From Escherichia coli (GTDB taxonomy: Bacteria > Pseudomonadota > Gammaproteobacteria > Enterobacterales > Enterobacteriaceae): a stretch of DNA of 64,000 nt. A program made the position numbers and the translations under genes. A model generated the notes under the pieces. It was not told where the DNA came from, did not search any database, and saw only the letters and a list, made by a program, of their open reading frames with translations. The stretch is from NCBI RefSeq assembly GCF_044324785.1, contig NZ_CP172127.1, one strand, 5' to 3'. The first letter of the stretch is position 1; each line of letters opens with the position of its first letter. Shown here piece by piece: positions 6,325 through 46,587 of this stretch.

Positions 6325-7359
6325 TCAGCCGTTGTCAGTGTCCAGTGAGTAGTTTTTAAATCGGATGACCTCCTGACCGAGCCAGCCGTTTATCTCGCGG
6401 ATCCTGTCCTGTAACGGGATAAGCTCATTGCGGACAAAGACCTTTGCCACTTTCTCAATATCACCCAGCGACCCGACGTTCTCCGGCTTGCCGCCCATCA
6501 ACTGAAAGGGGATGCGGTGCGCGTCCAGCAGGTCTGCGGCGCTGGCTTTTTTGATATTAAAAAAATCGTCTTTCGTCGCCACTTCACTGAGCGGGATAAT
6601 TTTAATGCCGTCGGCTTTTCCCTGCGGGGCGTAGAGAAACAGATTTTTAAAGTTGTTGCGGCCTTTCGACTTCACCATGTTTTCGCGGAGCATTTCGATA
6701 TCGTTGCGATCCTGCACGGCGTCGGTGACGTACATGATGTATCCGGCATGTGCGCCGTTTTCGTAATACTTGCGGCGGAACAGCGTGGCCGACTCATTCA
6801 GCCAGGCAGAGTTAAGGGCGCTGAGATATTCCGGCAGGCCGTACAGCTCCTGATTGATATCCGGCTCCAGCAGGTGAAATACGGAGCCGGGCGCGAAGGC
6901 TGTCGGTTCGTTGAAGGACGGCACCCACCAGTAAACATCCTCTTCCACCCCACGGCGGGTATATTTTGCCGGTGAGGTTTCCAGTCTGATGACCTTACCG
7001 GTGGTGCTGTAACGCTTTTCCAGAAACGCATTGCCGAACACCAGAAAATCCAGCACAAAGCGGCTGAAATCCTGCTGGGAAAGCCACGGATGCGGGATAA
7101 ATGTCGAGGCCAGAATATTGCGTTTGACGTAAATCGGTGAGCTGTGATGCACGGCAGCACGCAGACTTTTTGCCAGCCCGGTAAAGCTGACCGGCGGCTC
7201 ATACCATCTGCCGTTACTGATGCATTCGACGTAATCCAGAATGTCACGGCGGTCGAGTACCGGCACCGGCTCGCCAAAGGTGAATGCCTCCATTTTCGGG
7301 GCGCTGGCAGTCATTTTTTTTGCCGCAGGTTGCGGTGTTTTCCCTTTTTTCTTGCTCAT
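6325..7359 (-). CDS. Q: Portal protein gpQ (344 aa)
   Basis: Size, position next to cos and terminase, and sequence are typical of the P2 portal protein. Confidence 0.9.
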   Translation of the reverse strand: MSKKKGKTPQPAAKKMTASAPKMEAFTFGEPVPVLDRRDILDYVECISNGRWYEPPVSFTGLAKSLRAAVHHSSPIYVKRNILASTFIPHPWLSQQDFSRFVLDFLVFGNAFLEKRYSTTGKVIRLETSPAKYTRRGVEEDVYWWVPSFNEPTAFAPGSVFHLLEPDINQELYGLPEYLSALNSAWLNESATLFRRKYYENGAHAGYIMYVTDAVQDRNDIEMLRENMVKSKGRNNFKNLFLYAPQGKADGIKIIPLSEVATKDDFFNIKKASAADLLDAHRIPFQLMGGKPENVGSLGDIEKVAKVFVRNELIPLQDRIREINGWLGQEVIRFKNYSLDTDNG

Positions 7360-9131
7360 CAGTAAAACTCCAGAATGGTGGATGTCAGCGGGGTGCTGAT
7401 ACCGGCGGTGAGTGGCTCATTTAACAGGGCGTGCATGGTCGCCCAGGCGAGGTCGGCGTGGCTGGCTTCCTCGCTGCGGCTGGCTTCATAGGTGGCGCTG
7501 CGTCCGCTGCTGGTCATGGTCTTGCGGATAGCCATAAACGAGCTGGTGATGTCGGTGGCGCTGACGTCATATTCCAGACAGCCACGGCGGATAACGTCTT
7601 TTGCCTTGAGCACCATTGCGGTTTTCATTTCCGGCGTGTAGCGGATATCACGCGCGGCGGGATAGAACGAGCGCACGAGCTGGAACACGCCGACACCGAG
7701 GCCGGTGGCATCAATACCGATGTATTCGACGTTGTATTTTTCGGTGAGTTTGCGGATGGATTCAGCTTGGGTGGCAAAGTCCATGCCTTTCCACTGGTGA
7801 CGCTCAAGTATTCTGAATTTGCCACCGGCCACCACCGGCGGTGCCAGTACCACGCATCCGGCGCTGTCGCCACGGTGTGACGGGTCGTAACCAATCCATA
7901 CCGGGCGGGAGCCGAACGGATTGGCGGCAAACGGCGCATAGTCTTCCCATTCTTCCAGCGTGTCGACCATGCAGCGTTGCAGCTCCTCGAACGGGAACAC
8001 CGATGCCTTGTCGTCAACAAATTCACACATGAACAGGTTTTTAAAATCGTCGGCGCTGTTTTCGCGTTTGAGCTGCTCAATGTCGAACAGCGTGCAGCCG
8101 CCTTTCAGGGCATCCTCAATGGTGACAATCTGCCGCCACTGGCCGTCCGCACAGAGAAGCCCACCGGCAAGGGCGTTATGACTGACGTCGATTTCCACAC
8201 GTTCGGCGGCGCTGGCGCGTCCCCGGTTGAACAGTTCACCTGACCAGAACGGGTAGGCGTCGTGCGCCAGCGTGGACGGGGTGGAGAAATAGGTCGAGCG
8301 CAGGTGACTCTGTGAGGCCATACCTGATGCCACCTTACGCAGTACCTGAAAATTCGGGATCCAGAAAATCTCATCGACGTACAGGTCGCCGTTATGGCTC
8401 TGCGCGGTGTTGGAGTTTGTGCCGAGAAAAATCAGTTTTGCGCCGTTATTGCCCAGGACAATCGGGTCACCGGTCAGGTCAACGTCAACCAGACGGGCAA
8501 AGGCGATGATGTATTCACGGAATACATACGCCTGCGTTTTACTGGCCGACAGAAAAATCTGGTTATGGCCGGTTTTCAGGGCGCGCAGCAGCGCCTCGCG
8601 GGAAAAATAAAACGTTGCGCCAATCTGGCGGGATTTCAGGATATCGCGGATGCGGTGCTCAAGCCCGGCGCGATACCAGTGCAACTGATAGTCGAAAGAC
8701 TGCTCAAAGAAAATCTGCTCCAGCTTTTCGATGGCCTCGTCACTGAAAAAATTCTTTTTCGGTTTGCGACGCCCGCCTTTGTTGCGGTTAGCGACGTTCG
8801 GATTAAGGTCTGCCTCGTTGCCGGTCTGACTGTAGCGGTTTATCCGTGCCAGTCGTTCAATCTGGCGTCCGAGCAGGTCAATTTCCTTGAAGTCACCACC
8901 GGTTTTCTGCGGTTTGATGATGAGCTGGGTCAGTCGCGCTTCCAGACTCATTTCGACACGGCTGATGGGGGCAACGCTGTCCCAGCCGTCGCGCTGTTTC
9001 CAGCTCTGCACCGTCGGGCGTTTCATCTGCAACATGGCGGCAATCTGCGGCACGGAAAACCCCTGCCAGTACAGCAGCGCCGCCTGACGACGCGGGTCGT
9101 GTAAAAGAGTGGTGTCTGTGGTGATGGTCAT
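7359..9131 (-). CDS. P: Terminase large (ATPase) subunit gpP (590 aa)
   Basis: ORF track gives 7359..9161. Start trimmed to the internal Met (MTITTDTTLL) that matches the P2 gpP N-terminus and length. Confidence 0.9.
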   Translation of the reverse strand: MTITTDTTLLHDPRRQAALLYWQGFSVPQIAAMLQMKRPTVQSWKQRDGWDSVAPISRVEMSLEARLTQLIIKPQKTGGDFKEIDLLGRQIERLARINRYSQTGNEADLNPNVANRNKGGRRKPKKNFFSDEAIEKLEQIFFEQSFDYQLHWYRAGLEHRIRDILKSRQIGATFYFSREALLRALKTGHNQIFLSASKTQAYVFREYIIAFARLVDVDLTGDPIVLGNNGAKLIFLGTNSNTAQSHNGDLYVDEIFWIPNFQVLRKVASGMASQSHLRSTYFSTPSTLAHDAYPFWSGELFNRGRASAAERVEIDVSHNALAGGLLCADGQWRQIVTIEDALKGGCTLFDIEQLKRENSADDFKNLFMCEFVDDKASVFPFEELQRCMVDTLEEWEDYAPFAANPFGSRPVWIGYDPSHRGDSAGCVVLAPPVVAGGKFRILERHQWKGMDFATQAESIRKLTEKYNVEYIGIDATGLGVGVFQLVRSFYPAARDIRYTPEMKTAMVLKAKDVIRRGCLEYDVSATDITSSFMAIRKTMTSSGRSATYEASRSEEASHADLAWATMHALLNEPLTAGISTPLTSTILEFY

Positions 9132-9304
9132 GAATACCTCGCCGTGATGAATACACGGCAAGGCTACTGAGTCGCGCCCTGCGATTCGCTAAGGTGCTGT
9201 TGTGTCAGTGATAAGCCATCCGGGACTGATGGCGGAGGATGCGCATCGTCGGGAAACTGATGCCGACATGTGACTCCTCTAATCACTATTCAGGACTCCT
9301 GACA
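9132..9304. promoter_or_regulatory. Divergent late promoter region between P (leftward) and O (rightward)
   Basis: Intergenic spacer between divergently oriented late operons. In P2 this spacer holds the Ogr-dependent late promoters. Individual promoter elements not resolved by eye. Confidence 0.5.
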
Positions 9305-10159
9305 ATGGCAAAAAAAGTCTCAAAATTCTTTCGTATCGGCGTTGAGGGTGACACCTGTGACGGGCGTGTCATCAGTGCGCAGGATATTCAGGAAATGGCC
9401 GAAACCTTTGACCCGCGTGTCTATGGTTGCCGCATTAACCTGGAACATCTGCGCGGCATCCTGCCTGACGGCATTTTTAAACGTTATGGCGATGTGGCCG
9501 AACTGAAGGCCGAAAAGATTGACGATGATTCGGCGCTGAAAGGCAAATGGGCGCTGTTTGCGAAAATCACCCCGACCGATGACCTTATCGCGATGAACAA
9601 GGCCGCGCAGAAGGTCTACACCTCAATGGAAATTCAGCCGAACTTTGCCAACACCGGCAAATGTTATCTGGTGGGGCTGGCCGTCACCGATGACCCGGCA
9701 AGCCTCGGCACGGAATACCTGGAATTCTGCCGCACGGCAAAACACAACCCTCTGAACCGCTTCAAATTAAGCCCTGAAAACCTGATTTCAGTGGCAACGC
9801 CTGTTGAGCTGGAATTTGAAGACCTGCCTGAAACCGTGTTCACCGCCCTGACCGAAAAGGTGAAGTCCATTTTTGGCCGCAAACAGGCCAGCGATGATGC
9901 CCGTCTGAATGACGTGCATGAAGCGGTGACCGCTGTTGCTGAACATGTGCAGGAAAAACTGAGCGCCACTGAGCAGCGCCTCGCGGAGATGGAAACCGCC
10001 TTTTCCGCACTTAAGCAGGAGGTGACTGACAGGGCGGATGAAACCAGCCAGGCATTCACCCGCCTGAAAAACAGTCTCGACCACACCGAAAGTCTGACCC
10101 AGCAGCGCCGCAGCAAGGCCACCGGCGGTGGCGGTGACGCCCTGATGACGAACTGCTGA
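9305..10159 (+). CDS. O: Capsid scaffolding protein gpO (284 aa)
   Basis: ORF track starts at 9239. Trimmed to MAKKVSKFF, which matches the P2 gpO start and length. Confidence 0.9.
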   Translation: MAKKVSKFFRIGVEGDTCDGRVISAQDIQEMAETFDPRVYGCRINLEHLRGILPDGIFKRYGDVAELKAEKIDDDSALKGKWALFAKITPTDDLIAMNKAAQKVYTSMEIQPNFANTGKCYLVGLAVTDDPASLGTEYLEFCRTAKHNPLNRFKLSPENLISVATPVELEFEDLPETVFTALTEKVKSIFGRKQASDDARLNDVHEAVTAVAEHVQEKLSATEQRLAEMETAFSALKQEVTDRADETSQAFTRLKNSLDHTESLTQQRRSKATGGGGDALMTNC

Positions 10160-23973: not shown

Positions 23974-24271
23974 TAAAACTGGACTTAGGGATAATTAATA
24001 TATAGACGTTCTATCATTTTTAGAGTGTGCGGCAGCTCCATACATTCATGCGGATGTCAGCACCTCGCTCAAAGCAGACAGTCAGATTTGATAGCGTTTG
24101 GACTATGTAAATAGTCAGTTGGAAAATGAGTGAGTACAAATCAGGACAGGCGGGCGAATTGCCCGCCTTTTCTTTATCTGTTGTTTCATCCACTGACCAG
24201 CCAGGTCAAATAGCGTCTCATGCTCTGCCCAACAGAAAATAGTTGCACCCATTAACCACGGAGTTAAACGG

Positions 24272-25462
24272 ATGAGTGACTATCATCACGGCGTGCAGGT
24301 GCTGGAGATTAACGACGGCACCCGCGTCATTTCCACCGTATCCACGGCCATTGTCGGCATGGTCTGCACGGCCAGCGATGCGGATGCGGAAACCTTCCCC
24401 CTCAATAAACCGGTGCTGATTACCAATGTGCAGAGCGCAATTGCAAAGGCTGGTAAAAAAGGCACGCTGGCGGCATCGTTGCAGGCCATCGCCGACCAGT
24501 CAAAACCGGTCACCGTTGTCGTGCGTGTGGAAGACGGCACCGGCGACGACGAGGAAACGAAACTCGCGCAGACCGTTTCCAATATCATCGGCACCACCGA
24601 CGAAAACGGTCAGTACACCGGACTGAAAGCCCTGCTGGCGGCGGAGTCGGTAACCGGTGTTAAACCGCGTATTCTCGGCGTGCCGGGACTGGACACCAAA
24701 GAGGTGGCTGTTGCACTGGCATCAGTCTGTCAGAAGCTGCGCGCTTTCGGGTATATCAGCGCATGGGGCTGTAAAACTATTTCCGAGGTGAAAGCCTACC
24801 GCCAGAATTTCAGCCAGCGTGAGTTGATGGTCATCTGGCCGGATTTCCTCGCATGGGATACGGTCACCAGTACCACCGCCACCGCGTATGCCACCGCCCG
24901 TGCGCTGGGTCTGCGCGCTAAAATCGACCAGGAGCAGGGCTGGCATAAAACACTGTCCAACGTTGGGGTGAACGGTGTTACCGGCATCAGCGCCTCTGTA
25001 TTCTGGGATTTGCAGGAGTCCGGCACCGATGCTGACCTGCTTAATGAGTCAGGCGTCACTACGCTGATTCGCCGCGACGGTTTCCGCTTCTGGGGTAACC
25101 GTACCTGCTCTGATGATCCGCTGTTCCTCTTTGAAAACTACACCCGCACCGCGCAGGTGCTGGCCGACACGATGGCTGAGGCGCACATGTGGGCGGTGGA
25201 CAAGCCCATCACCGCAACGCTGATTCGCGACATCGTTGACGGCATCAATGCCAAATTCCGTGAGCTGAAAACAAACGGCTATATCGTGGATGCGACCTGC
25301 TGGTTCAGCGAAGAATCCAACGATGCGGAAACCCTCAAGGCCGGAAAACTGTATATCGACTACGACTATACACCGGTGCCTCCTCTCGAAAACCTGACCC
25401 TGCGCCAGCGTATTACCGATAAATACCTGGCAAATCTGGTCACCTCGGTTAACAGCAATTAA
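24272..25462 (+). CDS. FI: Tail sheath protein gpFI (396 aa)
   Basis: Size and position. Confidence 0.9.
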   Translation: MSDYHHGVQVLEINDGTRVISTVSTAIVGMVCTASDADAETFPLNKPVLITNVQSAIAKAGKKGTLAASLQAIADQSKPVTVVVRVEDGTGDDEETKLAQTVSNIIGTTDENGQYTGLKALLAAESVTGVKPRILGVPGLDTKEVAVALASVCQKLRAFGYISAWGCKTISEVKAYRQNFSQRELMVIWPDFLAWDTVTSTTATAYATARALGLRAKIDQEQGWHKTLSNVGVNGVTGISASVFWDLQESGTDADLLNESGVTTLIRRDGFRFWGNRTCSDDPLFLFENYTRTAQVLADTMAEAHMWAVDKPITATLIRDIVDGINAKFRELKTNGYIVDATCWFSEESNDAETLKAGKLYIDYDYTPVPPLENLTLRQRITDKYLANLVTSVNSN

Positions 25463-25474
25463 GGAGCCTGACCG

Positions 25475-25993
25475 ATGGCAATGCCGCGCAAACTCAAGTT
25501 AATGAACGTCTTTCTGAACGGCTACAGCTATCAGGGCGTTGCAAAGTCCGTCACGCTGCCAAAACTGACCCGTAAGCTCGAAAACTATCGCGGTGCGGGG
25601 ATGAACGGCAGCGCACCGGTAGACCTCGGCCTTGATGACGATGCGCTGTCAATGGAGTGGTCGCTCGGTGGTTTCCCGGATTCGGTTATCTGGGAGCTTT
25701 ACGCAGCAACCGGTGTGGATGCCGTGCCGATTCGTTTTGCAGGCTCTTACCAGCGCGACGATACCGGCGAAACGGTGGCCGTCGAGGTAGTCATGCGTGG
25801 ACGTCAGAAAGAAATCGACACCGGAGAGGGTAAACAGGGAGAAGACACCGAGTCGAAAATCTCCGTGGTCTGCACCTATTTCCGGCTGACGATGGACGGT
25901 AAGGAGCTGGTCGAAATCGACACCATCAACATGATTGAGAAGGTGAACGGCGTCGACCGGCTGGAGCAACACCGCCGCAATATCGGCCTGTGA
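25475..25993 (+). CDS. FII: Tail tube protein gpFII (172 aa)
   Basis: Size and position. Confidence 0.9.
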   Translation: MAMPRKLKLMNVFLNGYSYQGVAKSVTLPKLTRKLENYRGAGMNGSAPVDLGLDDDALSMEWSLGGFPDSVIWELYAATGVDAVPIRFAGSYQRDDTGETVAVEVVMRGRQKEIDTGEGKQGEDTESKISVVCTYFRLTMDGKELVEIDTINMIEKVNGVDRLEQHRRNIGL

Positions 25994-26049
25994 TTTTCAT
26001 CCGGTCAGCCAGGCTGACCGGTTAACCCTGATTCAGAAGTGAGAAAACC

Positions 26050-26325
26050 ATGAACAAAGAAAATGTGATTACCCTGGACAATCCGGTCAAGCGTGGTGAG
26101 CAGGTTATCGAACAGGTCACGCTGATGAAACCCAATGCCGGGACGCTGCGCGGTGTCAGTCTGGCTGCGGTCGCGAACTCCGAAGTCGATGCACTGATTA
26201 AAGTGCTGCCGCGCATGACGGCACCGATGCTGACCGAACAGGAGGTCGCCGCGCTGGAACTGCCTGACCTTGTGGCGCTGGCCGGTAAGGTGGTCGGTTT
26301 TTTGTCGCCGAACTCGGTGCAGTGA
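26050..26325 (+). CDS. E: Tail assembly chaperone gpE (91 aa)
   Basis: Position between FII and T. Ends ...KVVGFLSPNSVQ. Confidence 0.85.
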   Translation: MNKENVITLDNPVKRGEQVIEQVTLMKPNAGTLRGVSLAAVANSEVDALIKVLPRMTAPMLTEQEVAALELPDLVALAGKVVGFLSPNSVQ

Positions 26326-26477
26326 CGTTTCCGAAAAATCTCTCGGTCGATGACCTGATGGCGGATGTGGCAGTGATATTTCACTGGCCGCCATCAGAAC
26401 TGTATCCCATGAGCCTGACCGAACTCATCACATGGCGCGAAAAGGCGCTCCGGCGAAGCGGAAACACGAATGAGTAA
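26050..26477 (+). CDS. E': gpE+E' product of programmed -1 frameshift (about 142 aa)
   Basis: Slippery T-run GGTTTTTTG at about 26296..26304 near the end of E. The -1 frame stays open to TAA at 26475..26477, overlapping the T start. Matches the known P2 E/E' arrangement. Confidence 0.6.
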
Positions 26478-28917
26478 CAATGTAAAATTACAGGTATTGC
26501 TCAGGGCTGTTGACCAGGCATCCCGCCCGTTTAAATCCATCCGCACAGCGAGCAAATCGCTGTCGGGGGATATCCGGGAAACACAAAAATCACTGCGCGA
26601 GCTGAACGGTCACGCATCCCGTATTGAGGGATTCCGCAAGACCAGTGCACAGCTCGCCGTGACTGGTCAGGAACTGAAAAAAGCCAGACAGGAAGCCGCA
26701 GCTCTGGCTGTCCAGTTTAAAAATACTGAACGACCGACAAATGCACAGGCAAAGGCAATGGAAGCCGCGCGTAAAAATGCGTCTGAGTTACAGGTGAAAT
26801 ATAACAGCCTGAGATTGTCGGTACAGCGCCAGCGTCAGGAATTGAGTCAGGCGGGTATTAATACCCGTAATCTGGCGCATGATGAACGAGGACTGAAAAA
26901 CCGTATCAGTGAAACCACCGCACAGCTTAACCGGCAGCGTGACGCGCTGGCGCGTGTCAGTGCACAACAGGCAAAACTTAACGCAGTAAAACAGCGTTAT
27001 CAGGCCGGAAAGGAACTGGCCGGAAATATGGCCTCGGTGGGCGCTGCCGGTGTGGGGATTGCGGCGGCGGGAACGATGGCCGGAGTTAAGCTGCTGATGC
27101 CCGGTTATGAGTTTGCGCAGAAAAACTCAGAATTGCAGGCCGTGCTCGGTGTGGCAAAAGACTCCACCGAAATGGCTGCACTACGCAAGCAGGCGCGTCA
27201 GCTCGGCGACAATACCGCAGCCTCGGCAGATGATGCAGCTGGTGCGCAGATTATTATTGCGAAAGCCGGTGGGGATGTTGATGCCATTCAGGCGGCAACG
27301 CCGGTCACGCTGAATATGGCGCTGGCGAACCGTCGCACAATGGAAGAAAACGCCGCCCTGCTGATGGGGATGAAATCCGCCTTTCAGCTTTCAAACGATA
27401 AGGTCGCTCATATCGGGGATGTTCTCTCCATGACGATGAACAAAACCGCCGCTGATTTTGACGGCATGAGCGATGCGCTGACCTATACCGCACCAGTGGC
27501 AAAAAATGCCGGTGTCAGCATTGAAGAAACCGCCGCAATGGTCGGGGCGCTGCATGATGCAAAAATCACAGGCTCAATGGCGGGGACGGGAAGCCGTGCC
27601 GTGTTAAGCCGCCTGCAGGCACCGACGGGAAAAGCATGGGATGCACTCAAAGAGCTTGGTGTGAAAACCTCAGACAGCAAGGGAAACACCCGACCAGTAT
27701 TTACCATTCTGAAAGAAATGCAGGCCAGTTTTGAGAAAAACCGGCTCGGTACTGCCCAGCAGGCTGAATACATGAAAACCATTTTCGGGGAGGAGGCCAG
27801 TTCAGCCGCCGCCGTGCTGATGACTGCCGCCTCAACCGGAAAGCTGGACAAACTGACCGCTGCGTTTAAAGCCTCAGACGGAAAGACCGCAGAGCTGGTA
27901 AATATCATGCAGGACAACCTCGGCGGTGAATTTAAGGAGTTTCAGTCCGCTTATGAGGCGGTGGGGACTGACCTGTTTGACCAGCAGGAAGGCGCACTGC
28001 GTAAGCTCACGCAGACGGCCACAAAGTATGTGTTAAAACTCGACGGCTGGATCCAGAAAAACAAATCACTGGCGTCAACCATCGGCCTCATTGTCGGTGG
28101 CGCGCTGGCGCTTATTGGCATCATCGGTGCCATTGGTCTGGTAGCCTGGCCGGTTATCACCGGCATCAATGCCATCATCGCGGCAGCAGGCGCAATGGGG
28201 GCAATCTTCACGACGGTTGGCAGTGCTGTTATGACCGCCATCGGGGCGATTAGCTGGCCGGTTGTGGCCGTGGTGGCCGCAATTGTCGCCGGGGCGTTGC
28301 TTATCCGTAAATACTGGGAGCCTGTCAGCGCATTCTTTGGCGGTGTGGTTGAAGGGCTGAAAGTGGCATTTGCGCCGGTGGGGGAACTGTTCACGCCACT
28401 TAAGCCGGTGTTTGACTGGCTGGGTGAAAAGTTACAGGCCGCGTGGCAGTGGTTTAAAAACCTGATTGCCCCGGTCAAAGCCACTCAGGACACCCTGAAC
28501 AGTTGCCGTGACACGGGGGTCATGTTCGGGCAGGCACTGGCTGACGCGCTGATGCTGCCGCTTAATGTGTTCAACAAACTGCGCAGCGGTATTGACTGGG
28601 TACTGGAAAAACTCGGCGTCATCAACAAAGAGTCTGACGCACTTGACCAGACTGCCGCCAGAACTCATGCCGCCACGTATGGCACAGGTGATTATATTCC
28701 GGCGACCGGCTCTTATGCGGGGTATCAGGCTTACCAGCCGGTCACGGCACCGGCTGGCCGCTCTTATGTGGACCAGAGTAAAAACGAATATCACATCAAT
28801 CTGACGGGCGGTACTGCGCCGGGGACACAGCTCGACCGCCATTTACAGGATGCGCTCGAAAAATACGAGCGGGATAAACGTGCGCGCGCCCGTGCCAGCA
28901 TGATGCATGACGGTTAA
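26470..28917 (+). CDS. T: Tail tape measure protein gpT (815 aa)
   Basis: Size, coiled-coil N-terminus, hydrophobic glycine/alanine-rich central segment. Confidence 0.9.
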   Translation: MSNNVKLQVLLRAVDQASRPFKSIRTASKSLSGDIRETQKSLRELNGHASRIEGFRKTSAQLAVTGQELKKARQEAAALAVQFKNTERPTNAQAKAMEAARKNASELQVKYNSLRLSVQRQRQELSQAGINTRNLAHDERGLKNRISETTAQLNRQRDALARVSAQQAKLNAVKQRYQAGKELAGNMASVGAAGVGIAAAGTMAGVKLLMPGYEFAQKNSELQAVLGVAKDSTEMAALRKQARQLGDNTAASADDAAGAQIIIAKAGGDVDAIQAATPVTLNMALANRRTMEENAALLMGMKSAFQLSNDKVAHIGDVLSMTMNKTAADFDGMSDALTYTAPVAKNAGVSIEETAAMVGALHDAKITGSMAGTGSRAVLSRLQAPTGKAWDALKELGVKTSDSKGNTRPVFTILKEMQASFEKNRLGTAQQAEYMKTIFGEEASSAAAVLMTAASTGKLDKLTAAFKASDGKTAELVNIMQDNLGGEFKEFQSAYEAVGTDLFDQQEGALRKLTQTATKYVLKLDGWIQKNKSLASTIGLIVGGALALIGIIGAIGLVAWPVITGINAIIAAAGAMGAIFTTVGSAVMTAIGAISWPVVAVVAAIVAGALLIRKYWEPVSAFFGGVVEGLKVAFAPVGELFTPLKPVFDWLGEKLQAAWQWFKNLIAPVKATQDTLNSCRDTGVMFGQALADALMLPLNVFNKLRSGIDWVLEKLGVINKESDALDQTAARTHAATYGTGDYIPATGSYAGYQAYQPVTAPAGRSYVDQSKNEYHINLTGGTAPGTQLDRHLQDALEKYERDKRARARASMMHDG

Positions 28918-28931
28918 GGAGGTGACGAAAA

Positions 28932-29411
28932 ATGATGCTCGCGTTAGGTATGTTTGTTTTTATGCGCCAGACGCTGCCACACCAGACCATGCAGCGTGAA
29001 TCAGATTATCGCTGGCCGTCAAATTCCCGTATCGGTAAACGGGACGCCTACCAGTTTCTCGGTGTGGGTGAGGAAAACATCACGCTTGCCGGTGTGCTTT
29101 ATCCAGAACTGACCGGCGGCAAGCTGACGATGACCACGCTCAGGCTGATGGCAGAGGAAGGCCGGGCGTGGCCGTTGCTGGATGGCACCGGCATGATTTA
29201 CGGCATGTATGTCATCAGCAGGGTGAGTGAAACAGGGAGTATTTTCTTTGCAGACGGCACACCCCGGAAAATTGATTTTACGTTGTCGCTCACCCGCGTT
29301 GATGAATCACTGGCCGCGCTTTATGGCGATATCGGTAAACAGGCGGAATCGCTCATCGGTAAGGCTGGCAGTATGGCGACTAAATTCACGGGTATGACGG
29401 GGGCGGGATAA
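28932..29411 (+). CDS. U: Tail protein gpU (159 aa)
   Basis: Position and size. Confidence 0.9.
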   Translation: MMLALGMFVFMRQTLPHQTMQRESDYRWPSNSRIGKRDAYQFLGVGEENITLAGVLYPELTGGKLTMTTLRLMAEEGRAWPLLDGTGMIYGMYVISRVSETGSIFFADGTPRKIDFTLSLTRVDESLAALYGDIGKQAESLIGKAGSMATKFTGMTGAG

Positions 29412-30574
29412 TGCTGGACGCGCTGACATTTGATGCAGGCAGTACGCTGACGCCGGATTACATGCTGATGCTCGACAGCAGGGATATTACCGGCAATATC
29501 AGCGACCGTCTGATGAGCATGACCCTGACGGATAACCGGGGCTTTGAGGCTGACCAGCTTGATATTGAACTGAACGATGCCGACGGGCAGGTCGGGCTGC
29601 CGGTTCGTGGCGCTGTCCTGACGGTGTATATCGGCTGGAAAGGTTTTGCCCTGGTATGCAAAGGGAAATTTACCGTTGATGAGGTTGAACACCGGGGCGC
29701 ACCGGATGTGGTCACCATCCGCGCCCGGAGTGCAGATTTCCGCGGGACGCTCAATTCCCGCCGTGAAGGCTCCTGGCATGACACCACGCTCGGTGCGATT
29801 GTTGAGGCGATAGCCTCCCGTAACAGACTGGAAGCCAGTGTCGCTCCGTCACTGGCCGGAATTAAAATCCCGCACATCGACCAGTCGCAGGAGTCTGATG
29901 CGAAATTCCTGACCCGTCTTGCAGAACGCAACGGCGGTGAGGTGTCGGTAAAAATGGGAAAACTGCTGTTTCTCAAAGCGGGGCAGGGGGTGACTGCCAG
30001 CGGTAAAAAAATCCCGCAGATTACCATCACCCGCAGCGACGGTGACCGTCATCATTTTGCGATTGCTGACCGTGGCGCCTATACCGGCGTAACGGCAAAG
30101 TGGTTACACACCAAAGACCCGAAGCCACAAAAGCAGAAGGTAAAACTGAAACGCAAAAAGAAAGAGAAACACCTGCGCGCACTGGAGCACCCGAAAGCGA
30201 AACCAGTCACGCAGAAGAAAGCGCCAAAAGTACCGGAAGCACGCGAAGGTGAATACATGGCTGGTGAGGCTGACAACGTTTTTGCCCTGACCACGGTATA
30301 TGCCACGAAAGCGCAGGCCATGCGCGCCGCTCAGGCGAAGTGGGATAAGCTGCAACGGGGCGTTGCGGAGTTCTCCATCAGTCTGGCTACTGGTCGGGCA
30401 GATATTTACACGGAAACGCCGGTCAAAGTGTCAGGCTTTAAGCGCGTCATAGACGAGCAGGACTGGACAATCACTAAGGTGACACATTTTCTGAATAATA
30501 GCGGCTTCACGACGTCCTTAGAGCTTGAGGTCAGGCTTTCTGATGTGGAGTACGAAACAGAAGATGATGAGTGA
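29411..30574 (+). CDS. D: Tail protein gpD (387 aa)
   Basis: Position and size. Start overlaps the U stop. Confidence 0.9.
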   Translation: MLDALTFDAGSTLTPDYMLMLDSRDITGNISDRLMSMTLTDNRGFEADQLDIELNDADGQVGLPVRGAVLTVYIGWKGFALVCKGKFTVDEVEHRGAPDVVTIRARSADFRGTLNSRREGSWHDTTLGAIVEAIASRNRLEASVAPSLAGIKIPHIDQSQESDAKFLTRLAERNGGEVSVKMGKLLFLKAGQGVTASGKKIPQITITRSDGDRHHFAIADRGAYTGVTAKWLHTKDPKPQKQKVKLKRKKKEKHLRALEHPKAKPVTQKKAPKVPEAREGEYMAGEADNVFALTTVYATKAQAMRAAQAKWDKLQRGVAEFSISLATGRADIYTETPVKVSGFKRVIDEQDWTITKVTHFLNNSGFTTSLELEVRLSDVEYETEDDE

Positions 30575-30655
30575 TGTCTTTATTTTATCTGTTTGTTTTA
30601 TAAGGATAAATTAACTAAAATGGCACCATCAACAAAACCGGAAGAGGTGCTCGCG

Positions 30656-30874
30656 ATGTTTCATTGTCCTTTATGCCAGCATGCCGCACATGCGCGTACA
30701 AGCCGCTATATCACTGACACGACAAAAGAGCGTTATCACCAGTGTCAGAACGTGAATTGCAGCGCCACGTTCATCACTTATGAGTCGTTACAGCGATACA
30801 TCGTGAAGCCGGGAGAAGTCCACGCCGTAAGACCGCACCCGTTGCCGTCAGGGCAGCAAATTATGTGGATGTAA
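30656..30874 (+). CDS. ogr: Late gene transcriptional activator Ogr, zinc finger (72 aa)
   Basis: MFHCPLCQHAAHARTSRY...CQNVNCSATF with a four-Cys zinc motif. ORF track start at 30593 trimmed to the internal Met. Confidence 0.9.
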   Translation: MFHCPLCQHAAHARTSRYITDTTKERYHQCQNVNCSATFITYESLQRYIVKPGEVHAVRPHPLPSGQQIMWM

Positions 30875-30885
30875 TTACAAACAGG

Positions 30886-30911
30886 AAGCCCCTCAGTCGA
30901 GGGGCTTTTTT
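30886..30911 (+). terminator. Rho-independent terminator after ogr
   Basis: Hairpin AGCCCCTC-AGTC-GAGGGGCT followed by a T6 run. Confidence 0.7.
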
Positions 30912-30975
30912 GTCGATGTGGTCAATGTGTGGACGTGACCAGAAATAAATCCTTTTATTTCATTGTATTACGCGT

Positions 30976-31002
30976 AAAAAATAAGCCCGTGTAAGGGAGA
31001 TT
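30976..31002. other. attR: Prophage attR core (P2 27-bp att core AAAAAATAAGCCCGTGTAAGGGAGATT)
   Basis: Exact 27-mer at the junction between ogr and the host gene yegQ. Coincides with the 3' end of cyaR. The P2 core sequence is recalled from memory. Confidence 0.7.
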
Positions 31003-31062
31003 ACACAGGCTAAGGAGGTGGTTCCTGGTACAGCTAGCATTTTATGGGTTATGTTTTTCAGC
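30976..31062 (-). ncRNA. cyaR: CyaR (RyeE) Hfq-dependent small RNA, 87 nt
   Basis: Minus strand reads GCTGAAAAACATAACCCATAAAATGCTAGCTGTACCAGGAACCACCTCCTTAGCCTGTGTAATCTCCCTTACACGGGCTTATTTTTT: a CCUCCUU seed loop and a terminal hairpin with U-run. Lies between yegQ and the prophage end, as in K-12. Confidence 0.85.
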
Positions 31063-31146
31063 GAAACGGATGATAACCTTAATAAATGCAGCTGTATGTG
31101 ATCGGTTTCTAAGAATTTTCCATCCGGGAAAAATAATCGAAATTAA

Positions 31147-32508
31147 TCACTTACCGTGGGGGTTACGCGTGGTTTCCCCGGAGAAATTACGCATCAGCAG
31201 CGCGTAATTTAGCTCAAGATCCTGCGGCACCGGGATCCACACAGTATAACCATCGCCCGGTGCGACCGGCATTGCTTCGCCTTTGGCGTTTTCCATGTGC
31301 TCAAGGGTAAAGTTAATGTTCCCTTGCGGCGTCATCAGCTCAAGGCTGTCGCCAACGGAGAATTTATTTTTCACCGCTACCGCCGCGAGGTCGCCCTTGC
31401 GCTCACCGGTAAACTCACCAACAAACTGCTGGCGGTCAGAAACTGAATAACCGTATTCGTAGTTCTGATAATCGTCGTGAGTATGACGACGCAGGAAACC
31501 TTCGGTATAGCCACGATGCGCCAGACCTTCCAGAGTTTCCAGCAGGCTGGTATCGAACGGTTTGCCCGCAGCGGCGTCATCGATAGCTTTACGGTAAACC
31601 TGTGCGGTGCGTGCGCAATAGTAGAAAGATTTAGTACGGCCTTCGATTTTCAGCGAATGCACGCCCATTTTGGTCAGGCGTTCAACGTGGGCGATAGCGC
31701 GCAGATCTTTCGAGTTCATGATGTAAGTGCCGTGCTCATCTTCAAACGCGGTCATATACTCGCCCGGACGCTGGGCTTCTTCGATCATAAACACTTTGTC
31801 GGTTGGCGCGCCGATACCCAGCGTCGGCTCAACATTTTGCACCGGAATCGGCTCGTACTTGTGCACGATGTTGCCAACGTCATCTTCTTTCCCTTCCTGG
31901 ACGTTGTACTCCCAGCGGCAGGCGTTGGTGCAGGTGCCCTGGTTCGGGTCGCGCTTGTTGATATAGCCAGAGAGCAGGCAGCGACCGGAGTAGGCCATGC
32001 ACAGCGCGCCGTGAACGAAGATTTCGATCTCCATATCTGGCACCTGATTGCGGATCTCTTCAATCTCTTCCAGCGACAGCTCGCGAGAGAGGATCACGCG
32101 GGTCAGGCCCATTTGCTGCCAGAATTTCACCGTCGCCCAGTTCACGGCGTTAGCCTGTACCGAGAGATGGATCGGCATTTCAGGGAAGTGCTCACGCACC
32201 AGCATAATCAGCCCAGGATCGGACATTATCAGCGCATCCGGCCCCATTTCCACCACCGGTTTCAGGTCACGGATAAAGGTTTTCAGCTTGGCGTTGTGCG
32301 GTGCAATGTTGACCACGACATAAAACTTTTTCCCCAGCGCATGGGCTTCATTAATGCCGAGCTGAAGATTTTCGTGGTTGAATTCGTTGTTGCGCACACG
32401 CAGGGAGTAACGCGGCTGGCCCGCATAAACAGCATCTGCGCCATAAGCGAAAGCGTAACGCATATTTTTCAGCGTTCCCGCCGGGGAAAGGAGTTCCGGT
32501 TTAAACAT
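31147..32508 (-). CDS. yegQ: Peptidase U32-family protein YegQ (RlhA, 23S rRNA hydroxycytidine synthase), 453 aa
   Basis: Full-length translation is recognisable as E. coli YegQ. Confidence 0.9.
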   Translation of the reverse strand: MFKPELLSPAGTLKNMRYAFAYGADAVYAGQPRYSLRVRNNEFNHENLQLGINEAHALGKKFYVVVNIAPHNAKLKTFIRDLKPVVEMGPDALIMSDPGLIMLVREHFPEMPIHLSVQANAVNWATVKFWQQMGLTRVILSRELSLEEIEEIRNQVPDMEIEIFVHGALCMAYSGRCLLSGYINKRDPNQGTCTNACRWEYNVQEGKEDDVGNIVHKYEPIPVQNVEPTLGIGAPTDKVFMIEEAQRPGEYMTAFEDEHGTYIMNSKDLRAIAHVERLTKMGVHSLKIEGRTKSFYYCARTAQVYRKAIDDAAAGKPFDTSLLETLEGLAHRGYTEGFLRRHTHDDYQNYEYGYSVSDRQQFVGEFTGERKGDLAAVAVKNKFSVGDSLELMTPQGNINFTLEHMENAKGEAMPVAPGDGYTVWIPVPQDLELNYALLMRNFSGETTRNPHGK

Positions 32509-32709
32509 AATTCTCTCGTTCTGATGACAGGTCAGATCCGCTTCACCTGATGAAGCGGCCAGGGGAGTGCCCCCACTTTAAGGGCGGGCATTGTAGCGCA
32601 ATCGTTGGGGTTGGCTCCAGTGTAATTGTGATGAGCTTTTCGATGCCTGGCGTACAATTGACATCAGAATTGAGTATATTTACGACCGTGAATGCTAAGG
32701 AGTTAAAAC

Positions 32710-33315
32710 ATGTGGATGTTAAAGAAGGGAATCACGCTGGCTCTGTTGGTTCTGTTTTCTCTGCCCGCTACTGCCGGTCTTTCGCTGGAGGAGACTGCTC
32801 GTAAGGTGATTATCGGCTTTCAGCAAAAAGATGCTCAATTAATCAACTCGTTAATTGATAAAAAAACGGGGTTGTATGTTCTCTTCCAGCGTGGCGCTTC
32901 GATGGATGTCGAAAATTTTAAGTCAATTGATTTTAAAACGCCTGTTCCCGAGTATTTGCTGTGGCCTTCGGCAGGGGAACATATTCCGCGAGATGAAGAG
33001 TTTGATAAGAAAACTATCCCGGAATTTGACTGTGAACGTGGTTGGAATAAGCACGGATATTTTATTAGCAGCAGCGATACACACCATAAAGTCAGCCGTA
33101 ATTTGGTCTTCACGCAGATGTTTGGTTCACCGCGAAACACTATTTCTGATGCGCAGATTGCCGCAGCGCGTCGAATGGAGTACGGGGCCGTGCGTGTGGT
33201 CGCTGCGCCAGAAGGGGGTAGCGATGGACTGGTATTTTATTTAAGTCAACTTTACGGTTATGACCGTGACTGGTATCTGACGGTGGTGGATCAGATTGGT
33301 GATTGTGGGGCGTGA
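32710..33315 (+). CDS. Hypothetical secreted protein (201 aa)
   Basis: N-terminal signal peptide MLKKGITLALLVLFSLPATA. No recognisable family. In an islet that, as far as I recall, is absent from the K-12 yegP-yegQ interval. Confidence 0.6.
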   Translation: MWMLKKGITLALLVLFSLPATAGLSLEETARKVIIGFQQKDAQLINSLIDKKTGLYVLFQRGASMDVENFKSIDFKTPVPEYLLWPSAGEHIPRDEEFDKKTIPEFDCERGWNKHGYFISSSDTHHKVSRNLVFTQMFGSPRNTISDAQIAAARRMEYGAVRVVAAPEGGSDGLVFYLSQLYGYDRDWYLTVVDQIGDCGA

Positions 33316-33345
33316 TAAAGATTTATTCGCCCGCAAGCAGTGATG

Positions 33346-34746
33346 CTATTTAAAAGGTATGTAACCCCTTAATCTGTTGTGAAGTTCCGGATTGCGGGTA
33401 AAAAGCGCCTGAAGTTGCTGACGCTGGGGAGCATTCGGTTGAATGCCCGAAAGATTGAAATTGCGTTGCCATATTGCGAGCTGTTTATCTGCAAATTCTT
33501 CAGTTAGTTTGTGTTGCGATTGCAGAAGAAGAATTAAACCGTCCCATTTGTTCAAGTTATGATACAACCGACAATATGCGCAAGCATGTTTAACTGACGG
33601 TGCGTTTTCCAGCAACTGACGTATTTCCTCGAACGTGAGCGGAACGCGACACCATACACAGATGTTAACCATAAATCGAAGCCCGGAGGCGTCCGGGTTA
33701 GCCAGTGTGGTCAGAATAATCCCTTTGGCACCACCATCAGGATTGGCTTTCGCAAGAATATACATAGCGGCTAATCGCAGTGGGAATACATCCTGTGATA
33801 ATCCCCATTCAGCCAGTTTTAAAATATTGGCATCATGAATGGAGTCCAGCCCGTATAAAGCTGCCCGGCGCTGTGAGGGAGTATATTCAGTCGAGGTGAC
33901 AACATGACGCCAGAATTGCGCAACATCCATGACGTCATTAAGCATGTTTTTAGCGCGTAGACGGATCAACATATTGTTATCCAGCAGTAATGCGCTGTAC
34001 AACGCCGGAGGAATTTCTATAGCTCGGTCAGTAAGGCTAAACAACGTTGCTTGTCGAATACGCGGCCAGCGGTCTTTTAACAGACGAGTTAATACCGCTT
34101 CGCTTAACGGTAATTGTTGACGCAGCCAGTGGGTGACCGCCAGCATTCGTAAACCTTCGTCGGGCTGCTTGAGTATTAAAAGCAGCGAAGATTCATCATT
34201 AAAGTAGCCATATTCAATCAGCGTTTGTAATACTGCGCGGGAGAGTTTTTTATCAGGGCAAGTAAGCCAACACGTTAATTGTGGACGGCTATTTTCTGTC
34301 AATAAAAATCTAAGTATCTCGTCTACAAATGCACGGTGATCGTAACGCTGGCATTGGAGAAGGTTACGTATCATGGGAAGATTAACGGCAAATGCCGCTG
34401 CATTCTTATCCTTCTTTAAATGACGTAACGCTATGGTTGCAGCAAGGCGAACCTCTTTTACCCAGTCATTAGCTGCAAGTAATAATTCTTCTATAGCTGC
34501 AACATCCTCTTTTTGTCCCAGACATTGCACGGCCTTTTCTCGTATATATCCATTGTGGTGATGGGTAAGCTGGCAAAGAACCAGAGTATCGTTGAGATCA
34601 CAATCATGCGCTATATAATTGCCTGGATCGGCTATCATCGCCTGGAGTTGTTGCTGGATAAGAAATAATTCACAGTCAACAGAATTATTCATTTCGACAT
34701 TAAACAAAACCCTGCGTGTAAATAATGTACGCAATCCTTTGAGCAT
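33346..34746 (-). CDS. Hypothetical HEAT/ARM-like repeat protein (466 aa)
   Basis: Recurrent approximately VRxxAxxAL helical-repeat signatures (KEVRLAATIALRHL, WPRIRQATLFSL, FPLRLAAMYILAK). Lower GC than flanking core genes. Confidence 0.6.
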   Translation of the reverse strand: MLKGLRTLFTRRVLFNVEMNNSVDCELFLIQQQLQAMIADPGNYIAHDCDLNDTLVLCQLTHHHNGYIREKAVQCLGQKEDVAAIEELLLAANDWVKEVRLAATIALRHLKKDKNAAAFAVNLPMIRNLLQCQRYDHRAFVDEILRFLLTENSRPQLTCWLTCPDKKLSRAVLQTLIEYGYFNDESSLLLILKQPDEGLRMLAVTHWLRQQLPLSEAVLTRLLKDRWPRIRQATLFSLTDRAIEIPPALYSALLLDNNMLIRLRAKNMLNDVMDVAQFWRHVVTSTEYTPSQRRAALYGLDSIHDANILKLAEWGLSQDVFPLRLAAMYILAKANPDGGAKGIILTTLANPDASGLRFMVNICVWCRVPLTFEEIRQLLENAPSVKHACAYCRLYHNLNKWDGLILLLQSQHKLTEEFADKQLAIWQRNFNLSGIQPNAPQRQQLQALFTRNPELHNRLRGYIPFK

Positions 34747-34868
34747 AATTTTCCTTATCAGTTATGAGGAGAAAACTCATTTCATGATTAATAATTTCTT
34801 GAGGGATAGTAACTCTGTGGTGAGAGAAAATAAAGCCGGACGCCAACAACCCACGCCCGGCATCGTAA

Positions 34869-35201
34869 TTACGTATTGTCTTTCACCGTCTGGCTTGTGC
34901 CATTGGCTTTAACGGAGGCAATTCCGGTTTCACGAGATTGCGCGGTGGCGTACATCTGGCTGGAGCCGATAATTTGATGATTGGCGGCTTTCAGATTGAA
35001 ATAGAATTTGCCGTTGCTTGCCGTTTTTTTCTCATAGCGTTCTTCTTGCGGGCTGTTGCTACGCACCGACGCGATGCCCTTTTCCGCAGAGGCTTTTGAT
35101 GTATACAGCTCGCTGGTGAGGATAGTCTCACCATTGCCCGCTTTTAGCACAAACCGAAATTGATTATCACTGCTCTTACTGAGTTCAAACCAACCAGCCA
35201 T
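34869..35201 (-). CDS. yegP: DUF1508-family protein YegP (110 aa)
   Basis: MAGWFELSKSSDNQFRFVLKAGNGE.... ORF track start at 35240 trimmed. Confidence 0.85.
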   Translation of the reverse strand: MAGWFELSKSSDNQFRFVLKAGNGETILTSELYTSKASAEKGIASVRSNSPQEERYEKKTASNGKFYFNLKAANHQIIGSSQMYATAQSRETGIASVKANGTSQTVKDNT

Positions 35202-35380
35202 AATGACTCCTTGATTGAAATTGCGTATCGAAAACAGCATCTAAAAGGACTGTTTACCGATTAAAGTATGAGCGATTTTCTGGTGCCTGCCAGGGCGAAG
35301 AGATAATGTCAGTTTGCTGACCATGCGTGGAATAATGTTGCCGGATGCGGCGTGAATGCCTTCTCCGGCAGGTAAAAATG

Positions 35381-46363: not shown

Positions 46364-46587
46364 CGTTAAGAGTTTCTCTTCCTGAAACGTTTCGCGGAAT
46401 GATACTAGTGTAGCCAGCCAATAAGGGAGAAAAATGGAGGAATTATGAAACACTGTCGGGAATCGTCTGAATGACGGGCACATTTGCGAGCACGCATCCA
46501 GTAATAACACATGAAACTATTTTATCTACGCGTTAGCGATAGACTGCTTGCATGGCGAAAGGAGGTAAGCCGACGATTTCAGCGGGA

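Follow-up and report, generated by a model that had tools for sequence, protein, structure and literature searches.

Gene content of the yegQ–yegP interval

Two genes of uncharacterized families, here named ORF201 and HEAT466, separate yegQ from yegP in the Escherichia coli genome GCF_044324785.1. The window, i.e., the whole stretch of DNA that was analyzed, comprises 64,000 nucleotides of contig NZ_CP172127.1. A first-pass annotation of its sequence had described the two genes as an inserted, lower-GC islet missing from E. coli K-12. The table of open reading frames (ORFs) confirmed that two genes with the described reading frames are located between yegQ and yegP. In K-12, both are indeed absent, and yegP directly adjoins yegQ with a spacer of 146 bp. 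Pairwise alignment and BLAST against the K-12 locus (L005) placed the extra DNA at window positions 32600–34834, corresponding to 2235 bp where K-12 has 21 bp. The interval originally delimited, 32509–34868, is the whole intergenic region, but the segment that differs from K-12 starts ~90 bp further in on the left and stops 34 bp earlier on the right.

The yegQ gene (trhP) occupies positions 31147–32508 on the minus strand. The adjacent core intergenic DNA (32509–32599) lies upstream of yegQ and outside the variable segment, and it is collinear with K-12 up to position 32599. Of the 5426 complete genomes of our E. coli survey, 5423 had a match to these initial 91 nt of the query, the same number in which the flanks were found. 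According to the alignments, the variable segment starts with a 30-nt junction (32600–32629) common to all non-empty alleles. ORF201 (201 aa; 32710–33315, plus strand) is divergent from yegQ, and direct reading of the sequence revealed a Shine–Dalgarno motif, AAGGAG, 7 nt 5′ of its ATG (32697–32702, plus strand). HEAT466 (466 aa; 33346–34746, minus strand) is convergent with ORF201 and has the same orientation as yegP and baeR. Alignment and sequence scan identified a terminator-like hairpin with a T-run (34835–34847, minus strand) downstream of yegP at the right edge of the segment; yegP itself (34869–35201, longest ORF to 35240, minus strand) is followed by baeR, baeS, and mdtD.

The GC content of the segment is 0.444, as compared to 0.543 for yegQ, 0.539 for baeR, and 0.544 for baeS, so that the lower GC content noted in the first-pass annotation was borne out. 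Scans for promoters and terminators within the segment gave matches at chance level. ORF201 and HEAT466 are real coding genes, because exact copies of the proteins exist in public databases (on 305 and 284 contigs, respectively) and because the ratios of nonsynonymous to synonymous substitution rates (dN/dS) are well below 1.

ORF201 is a predicted exported protein of a family missing from Pfam

Searches against NCBIfam, PHROGs, and PDB sequences yielded nothing for either protein beyond generic HEAT similarity, and together with the Pfam and PADLOC results this agrees with the earlier statement that neither belongs to a characterized family. ORF201 remained without a match in PADLOC-DB v2. 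HEAT466 aligned with HEAT-ARM_XIII over 190 of 1972 positions (E = 1.6e-7), which amounts to generic repeat similarity. A known anti-phage defence system was rejected, as neither protein had a significant full-length match in PADLOC-DB v2.

The N-terminus of ORF201 resembles a Sec-type signal, with lysines at positions 5 and 6, a hydrophobic core at residues 8–22 (Kyte–Doolittle 19-residue maximum of 2.03), and the sequence A-T-A|G, in which an A-x-A signal peptidase I site follows residue 22. Thus, ORF201 has the sequence features of a Sec-exported protein cleaved by signal peptidase I, and the part of the first-pass annotation that called it secreted holds. Two cysteines (C108 and C199) and a C-terminal D-C-G/S-A motif are conserved, and the cysteines could form a disulfide in the periplasm. 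The near-invariant positions include C108, W112, G116, W188, D194, and C199; at its end, the consensus of the family reads D-C-S-A.

A word-indexed search for ORF201 relatives recovered 21 clusters only. The exhaustive profile search of 1.84 billion representatives gave 215 at E ≤ 1e-3, 101 of them at E ≤ 1e-10. The family members are mostly 190–230 aa long with signal or lipoprotein-like leaders; in some larger proteins the ORF201 domain is C-terminal, in one case together with leucine-rich repeats (LRR). For 70 members, Pfam assigned no domain over the ORF201 region and no shared family, and a profile built from these members retrieved nothing from the PDB sequences at E values up to 10. Judged by these sequence comparisons, the predicted exported domain of ~175 aa, for which ORF201 is the founding member among enterobacteria, has no counterpart in Pfam. 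No conserved neighbour was shared among the genomic contexts of distant ORF201 homologues.

AlphaFold2 gave no usable model for ORF201 (8-sequence alignment, predicted local distance difference test score (pLDDT) of 39), and Foldseek with this poor model returned sequence relatives only (UTI89 Q1R9Z0 and a Salmonella "putative exported protein"). Within the family, there are weak single-member matches to Tim44 and TcpC, and the domain starts helix–helix–strand. Both features make an NTF2-like fold a candidate idea that may apply to ORF201. We also noticed that the public proteins P0008, P0012, P0018, and P0020 are frameshifted ORF201 chimeras whose middle part is read in an alternative frame (window 32855–33244, +2 frame ORF). 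These variants would be explained either by pseudogenization in some strains or by assembly errors.

HEAT466 is a predicted α-solenoid

HEAT466 is devoid of a hydrophobic segment (Kyte–Doolittle maximum of 1.07). HEAT_2 was its sole significant Pfam match (E = 8e-5, residues 57–108), and the AlphaFold2 model was an all-helical solenoid of 29 helices with a pLDDT of 82. A Foldseek search of the PDB with this model found generic solenoids, the nearest being importin-α, the PP2A A subunit, and designed alphaRep (E ~3e-4 for importin and PP2A A). The HEAT profile match and the predicted solenoid fold assign HEAT466 to the HEAT-repeat α-solenoids, in agreement with the earlier designation as HEAT/ARM-like, and according to the model it is a cytoplasmic PBS-type HEAT-repeat solenoid. 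Its invariant residues form the structural repeat signature D-x-x-V-R-x-x-A, and no catalytic motif was seen in the protein. HEAT466 shares this signature, the HEAT_2 match, and the solenoid of two-helix repeats with HEAT_2 (PF13646) and HEAT_PBS (PF03130) proteins. In contrast to those, only one HEAT466 repeat reaches Pfam significance, and motifs of lyases, glycosylases, or hydroxylases were not found.

The close HEAT466 family is tiny; among 5.8 billion proteins, it makes up 16–22 clusters (90% identity), and almost all of these are located between baeR and yegQ. When one genome per species (100,044 species) was scanned for the two most conserved HEAT466 peptide motifs, true relatives appeared only in Escherichia and Phytobacter. 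AFDB50 relatives of ~450 aa with 23–40% identity occur in Affinibrenneria, Yersinia, Xenorhabdus, Budvicia, Pseudoalteromonas, and others, and all are uncharacterized; remote relatives with 23–33% identity are annotated as HEAT repeat proteins only.

The same gene families occupy the baeR–yegQ gap across Enterobacteriaceae

We compared the window with the corresponding gap of other Enterobacteriaceae, whose flanking proteins are 89–95% (BaeR) and 92–96% (YegQ) identical to those of the window. HEAT466 homologues follow baeR directly in locus L010 (37.5% identity) and in Phytobacter diazotrophicus (L017, 42%), and in both cases yegQ comes next. In Yokenella regensburgei (L029), HEAT466 (39%) is separated from yegQ by a gene for a 445-aa protein on the opposite strand. 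Locus L009 has the order baeR, TPR240, HEAT466 (60%), parD, parE′, and yegQ. In L030, where the HEAT466 start as called overlaps the baeR stop, HEAT466 (37%) is followed by TacA–TacT and yegQ; this TacA–TacT (GNAT) pair (8598–9343) sits in the same gap position in another enterobacterial genus.

ORF201 homologues are found next to yegQ and divergent from it in Klebsiella aerogenes (L011, 55% identity, alone in the gap), in L013 (two tandem paralogues of 47% and 41% preceded by TPR240 on the baeR side), and in Salmonella Abortusequi (L028, 45%). In the latter, baeR is followed by PcfJ, DUF1266, DUF4034, and TPR240 genes, then by an islet of ~9 kb, ORF201, and yegQ. The identities of 41–55% extend over the full length of ORF201. 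The divergent tandem paralogues of L013 are located at 7001–8285, beside yegQ. Both families co-occur in the cryptic Escherichia sp. MOD1-EC7003 (L016), where baeR is followed by a terminator, TPR240, HEAT466 with an apparent frameshift, the convergent ORF201, and yegQ; yegP is missing.

TPR240 represents a third resident family. It comprises exported proteins of ~240 aa with one weak tetratricopeptide repeat (TPR) match and four conserved cysteines, which are 61–89% identical across genera. The gene is always on the baeR side (L007, 4025–4744; L009, 7310–7996; L013, 8614–9336; L016, 3203–3916; L028, 15229–15948) and often 4–13 nt upstream of HEAT466, as is the case in L009 and L016. PADLOC, PHROGs, and NCBIfam gave no assignment for the neighbouring families PcfJ, DUF1266, DUF4034, and TPR240.

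The hairpin at 34835–34847 is nearly identical to the one directly after baeR in Escherichia sp. MOD1-EC7003 (L016, 3105–3150), which is devoid of yegP. Because nearly the same hairpin follows yegP in the window and baeR in MOD1-EC7003, the comparison suggests either that yegP entered between baeR and the baeR terminator or that it was lost from there. No yegP match was present in the gap of the six non-Escherichia loci searched. The longest yegP ORF of the window encodes 123 aa from an ATG at 35240; the RefSeq annotation is 110 aa (333 nt) in all genomes compared.

The gap has been described for Salmonella as the "yegQ locus", situated between yegQ and the gene for the ~700-aa STM2135/t0737 (Barretto & Fowler, 2020, Pathogens 9:559, PMC7400221). 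According to that paper, the locus harbours SAIDI-1, in which putative orphan immunity genes of type VI secretion systems (T6SS) and contact-dependent inhibition (CDI) form an array. The end genes t0721 and t0736, the latter encoding a TPR protein, have a near-average GC content there, and homologues exist at the yegQ locus of islet-free gamma-proteobacteria. The authors regard both as likely common components of the locus whose function is not known; they are probably unlike the immunity genes in origin and function and could not be placed in T6SS or CDI clusters (PMC7400221).

STM2135/t0737 is the DUF4034 protein found in L028. By its position and its full-length homology (45%) to the divergent, yegQ-adjacent gene of S. 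Abortusequi, ORF201 is the putative counterpart of the yegQ-side end gene t0721. ORF201 has the same position and orientation in E. coli, Escherichia sp., K. aerogenes, L013, and Salmonella, which is the pattern of a t0721-type resident of the yegQ locus. TPR240 corresponds to t0736 by position and homology, and the t0736 protein matches the TPR240 family that stands beside HEAT466 in Escherichia and other genera. The loci differ in that HEAT466 is absent from the single Salmonella locus examined (L028) and is not mentioned in the passages of PMC7400221 examined, and the E. coli window has no T6SS/CDI immunity array between the end genes.

Alleles of the gap in E. coli

The complete segment with intact ORF201 and HEAT466 was found in five of the 5426 genomes (0.1%), namely N3, GF60, 19KM1831, XJ6.1, and JNEC-KY178, with 98.4–98.7% identity. 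The two genes are not ubiquitous core genes, a possibility that the first-pass annotation had left to a presence/absence check. By subtraction, we estimate that ~59% of E. coli have the empty, K-12-like allele. A ParDE toxin–antitoxin (TA) pair occupies the gap in 1844 genomes (34%; e.g., L006), and 296 genomes (5.5%), including Nissle 1917 and UTI89-like strains, carry a PcfJ–DUF1266–DUF4034–ORF201 array in which ORF201 shows 88% nucleotide identity. Any part of HEAT466 was detected in 96 genomes (1.8%), of which 39 cover at least 80% of the gene; 57 copies are truncated or interrupted by IS1. One further allele (AP027764), read once, combines ORF201 with a truncated HEAT466 and an exported TPR protein of ~240 aa. 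The TPR240 gene is present in four of the 5426 genomes and absent from the window. Altogether, HEAT466 is missing from >98% of E. coli and ORF201 from 94%, and baeSR is kept.

ORF201 is present in 302 genomes, in 296 of which it is the end gene of the array without HEAT466. HEAT466, in turn, is found alone or beside parD fragments in HEAT-bearing loci (ST540, HEAT-only strains). The convergent genes hence occur mostly without each other, and the co-occurrence check speaks against the "module" that had been proposed. We conclude that ORF201 and HEAT466 are separate convergent transcription units and not an obligate pair. A type II TA pair or a two-gene operon was also rejected, as the genes are convergent, encode 201 and 466 aa, one of them with a signal peptide, and mostly occur apart.

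Type II TA cargo (ParDE in E. coli, TacAT elsewhere) resembles the segment in occupying the same spot between yegQ and HEAT466 or yegP, and the window keeps 30 nt matching the parE 3′ end. ORF201 and HEAT466 differ from such cargo in being convergent, large, and unlike any TA family, and one is predicted to be exported. Window positions 32301–32629 align with 1293–1621 of L006, where the parE coding sequence extends from 1603 to 1899. The junction (32600–32629) therefore coincides with the parE stop and last codons of the ParDE allele, and L002, L004, and L008 contain these 30 nt as well. Because this shared stretch matches the parE 3′ end, the alignment suggests that the breakpoints of recombination or deletion were inside an ancestral parDE cassette. 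Possibly, the junction descends from an ancestor that carried ParDE, or it is a joint formed by recombination.

The PcfJ–DUF1266–DUF4034 (702 aa) array was located at L004 14794–19509 in E. coli A0 34/86 and at L028 15229–19993 in Salmonella; the proteins are 59–65% identical, and the orientation of the array relative to baeR is inverted between the two species. A literature search uncovered no publication that deals with the E. coli alleles of the yegQ–yegP gap, and nothing relevant was found on DUF4034/DUF1266.

Evolutionary rate and base composition

The dN/dS values of HEAT466 were 0.22–0.29 within E. coli and 0.12 in comparison with L009, and that of ORF201 was 0.32 (window vs. B2-type allele). 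The flanking genes yegQ (0.01–0.06), baeR (0.02–0.05), and baeS (0.03–0.08) had far lower values. The dS between the E. coli alleles of HEAT466 was 0.17, which is within the range of the flanks. Because dN/dS is well below 1 yet above that of the flanks and the dS of HEAT466 is flank-like, both genes are best described, on the basis of these rates, as constrained coding sequences in which protein-level change proceeds 5–30 times faster than in their neighbours. The GC content of ORF201 is 0.43–0.47 in every genus, and for HEAT466, values between 0.44 (E. coli) and 0.55 (L010) were obtained.

Mobility and the neighbouring prophage

The repeat scan detected no flanking repeat of ≥12 nt at the segment borders, where short chance repeats only were seen; the check for flanking repeats called for by the first-pass annotation was thus negative. 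The ORF table revealed no recombinase or integrase gene at the segment, and no tRNA gene is located there. Rfam identified CyaR only (30979–31064, minus strand), which is outside the segment. The segment contained no match to phage DNA or PHROGs. Among 72,556 plasmids, the protein search gave three matches only. One is a HEAT relative of 31% identity on a 723-kb Rahnella replicon and another a short fragment from E. coli; the third, a Salmonella record, carries fbaB, yegS, and yegQ and is evidently of chromosomal origin. Conjugative-plasmid copies were not among them; the plasmid matches represent a chromid or misassigned chromosomal DNA. An integrase-borne island or prophage remnant was rejected for want of repeats, recombinase, phage match, and plasmid copy.

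The left part of the window contains a P2-like prophage (24054–31002 and further left) that is 96% identical to the tail, gpD, and ogr genes of P2 and P22H1. This P2/Peduovirus similarity (96%) ends at ~31002, within cyaR, and yegQ lies between prophage and segment. At the prophage site, K-12 presumably has the ogrK/yegZ remnant only. The proposal that the genes are the remnant of an att-proximal integration did not survive, nor did a link to the P2 attachment site in general, since yegQ and cyaR intervene and strain N3 carries the segment without the P2-like prophage.

Discussion

We consider it probable that the segment has survived from an old, variable set of genes that resides in the baeR–yegQ gap across Enterobacteriaceae and that it is not a recent insertion. 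The resident order would be fixed, running from baeR via (PcfJ–DUF1266–DUF4034), the exported TPR protein of ~240 aa, HEAT466, and (a TA pair) to ORF201, which faces the other genes and is divergent from yegQ. Different lineages would retain different subsets; the window would have kept ORF201 and HEAT466, 34% of E. coli ParDE only, and K-12 together with ~59% of E. coli would have lost everything by deletion. The K-12 state looks like a loss, because the same families occupy the same slot across genera and because E. coli offers a series of deleted and IS1-disrupted alleles. Decay is documented by HEAT466, of which 39 of 96 copies cover at least 80% of the gene and the rest are truncated or hit by IS1, by the parD fragments, and by the frameshifted ORF201 variants. 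The term "inserted" of the first-pass annotation is at odds with the missing repeats, integrase, and tRNA and with the same families, slot, order, and orientation across the Enterobacteriaceae; of its description, the secreted and the HEAT/ARM-like protein stand, whereas the inserted islet is not supported.

Several observations weigh against this interpretation. Both genes are 7–10 GC points below their flanks, ORF201 in every genus examined, which is a classic mark of foreign DNA, and HEAT466-like proteins (23–33% identity) also occur off-locus, e.g., on a Rahnella megaplasmid. Gain by homologous recombination via the conserved flanks would produce the same pattern as retention. As regards function, no toxin, effector, or partner gene was adjacent in any of the ~15 contexts read, there was no Imm, PADLOC, or PDB homology, and the ORF201 model had a pLDDT of 39.

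As to their role, ORF201 and HEAT466 may be non-enzymatic binding proteins of episodic usefulness. Such a role would account for the fast protein evolution, purifying selection where the genes are intact, and repeated truncation or deletion. A protective, inhibitor- or immunity-like function is a tentative guess, with well under even chances of being right. It is prompted by the binding-protein look, the fast evolution, the dispensability, and the gap that is shared with TA modules and with the orphan-immunity cargo of Salmonella. ORF201 would then counter an envelope-directed factor and HEAT466 a cytoplasmic one.

The alternative that fares best is a horizontally acquired two-gene islet, i.e., an orphan-immunity or effector–immunity module put into the yegQ–yegP spacer, but we regard it as unlikely. 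The low GC content of 0.444, the rarity of the pair in E. coli, the fast divergence of the genes, and the tandem ORF201 paralogues in L013 are all compatible with an islet. The same is true of the TA modules in the gap of 34% of E. coli and of L030, of the fusion of some distant ORF201-domain proteins to repeat domains such as LRR, and of the SAIDI-1 orphan-immunity islet, which is hosted by the same locus in Salmonella (PMC7400221). However, that paper sets t0721/t0736 apart from the immunity genes and outside T6SS/CDI clusters. Moreover, the genes are convergent and usually separate, no integrase, repeats, or att site were found, and position and orientation are conserved across at least eight enterobacterial lineages. 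Neither ORF201 nor the 70 family members had a Pfam, NCBIfam, or PDB match that would place them among T6SS/CDI orphan-immunity proteins, and Imm, PADLOC, and PHROG matches were likewise not obtained. No toxin gene was adjacent in any context read, including those of distant homologues; in the small sample of L011, L013, L014, L020–L024, L026, and L028–L030, none was found beside the homologues.

Somewhat less probable still are accessory components of the Bae envelope-stress/MdtABCD efflux system, with a periplasmic function for ORF201 and TPR240 and a cytoplasmic one for HEAT466. In six lineages, HEAT466 homologues come directly after baeR on the same strand, with an overlap of HEAT466 start and baeR stop in L030, the TPR240–HEAT466 spacing is 4–13 nt in L009 and L016, and two of the three resident families have signal peptides and conserved cysteines. 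In Escherichia, however, a strong terminator-like hairpin parts baeR/yegP from the genes, and a similar one exists in L010. The BaeR-box consensus, which we take to be TTTTTCTCCATDATTGGC, had no match in the segment with ≤3 mismatches. A search of the window with the same consensus TTTTTCTCCATDATTGGC and threshold gave a single match at 46417–46434 (minus strand, 1 mismatch), far outside the segment and in what is presumably the expected position of the mdtA promoter. The loss of HEAT466 from >98% and of ORF201 from 94% of E. coli with retention of baeSR does not fit Bae components, and the divergence of both proteins greatly outpaces that of BaeR and BaeS.

Equally doubtful is the most specific version of the protective function, in which ORF201 would be a periplasmic inhibitor or immunity protein of an undescribed, widespread exported domain and would form, with TPR240 and HEAT466, an ancient, fast-evolving protective set beside the Bae operon. 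Functionless leftovers en route to loss, of which the window copies are just not broken yet, would account for the truncated or IS1-interrupted majority of E. coli HEAT466 copies, the frameshifted ORF201 variants, the apparent frameshift of HEAT466 in L016, and the loss of both genes from most strains, but are very unlikely in view of the continuing purifying selection on intact copies (dN/dS of 0.22–0.32 within E. coli and 0.12 vs. L009), the persistence of full-length ORFs across genera at 37–60% identity, and the conservation of the ORF201 domain in 215 representative clusters.

A segment whose GC content and absence from K-12 make it look foreign is, in our opinion, more plausibly what remains of a variable region of long standing that was probably lost in K-12. 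The result represents the E. coli counterpart of the Salmonella "yegQ locus", complete with an allele series. Partly anticipated by the Salmonella literature, the observation adds modest value, namely synteny across genera, a series of alleles in E. coli, and an exported domain family missing from Pfam (215 representative clusters). It draws attention to two uncharacterized families, the Pfam-less exported domain and the locus-bound HEAT protein. Should an inhibitor or immunity function emerge for either, the locus would qualify as a site of defence cargo conserved across the Enterobacteriaceae.

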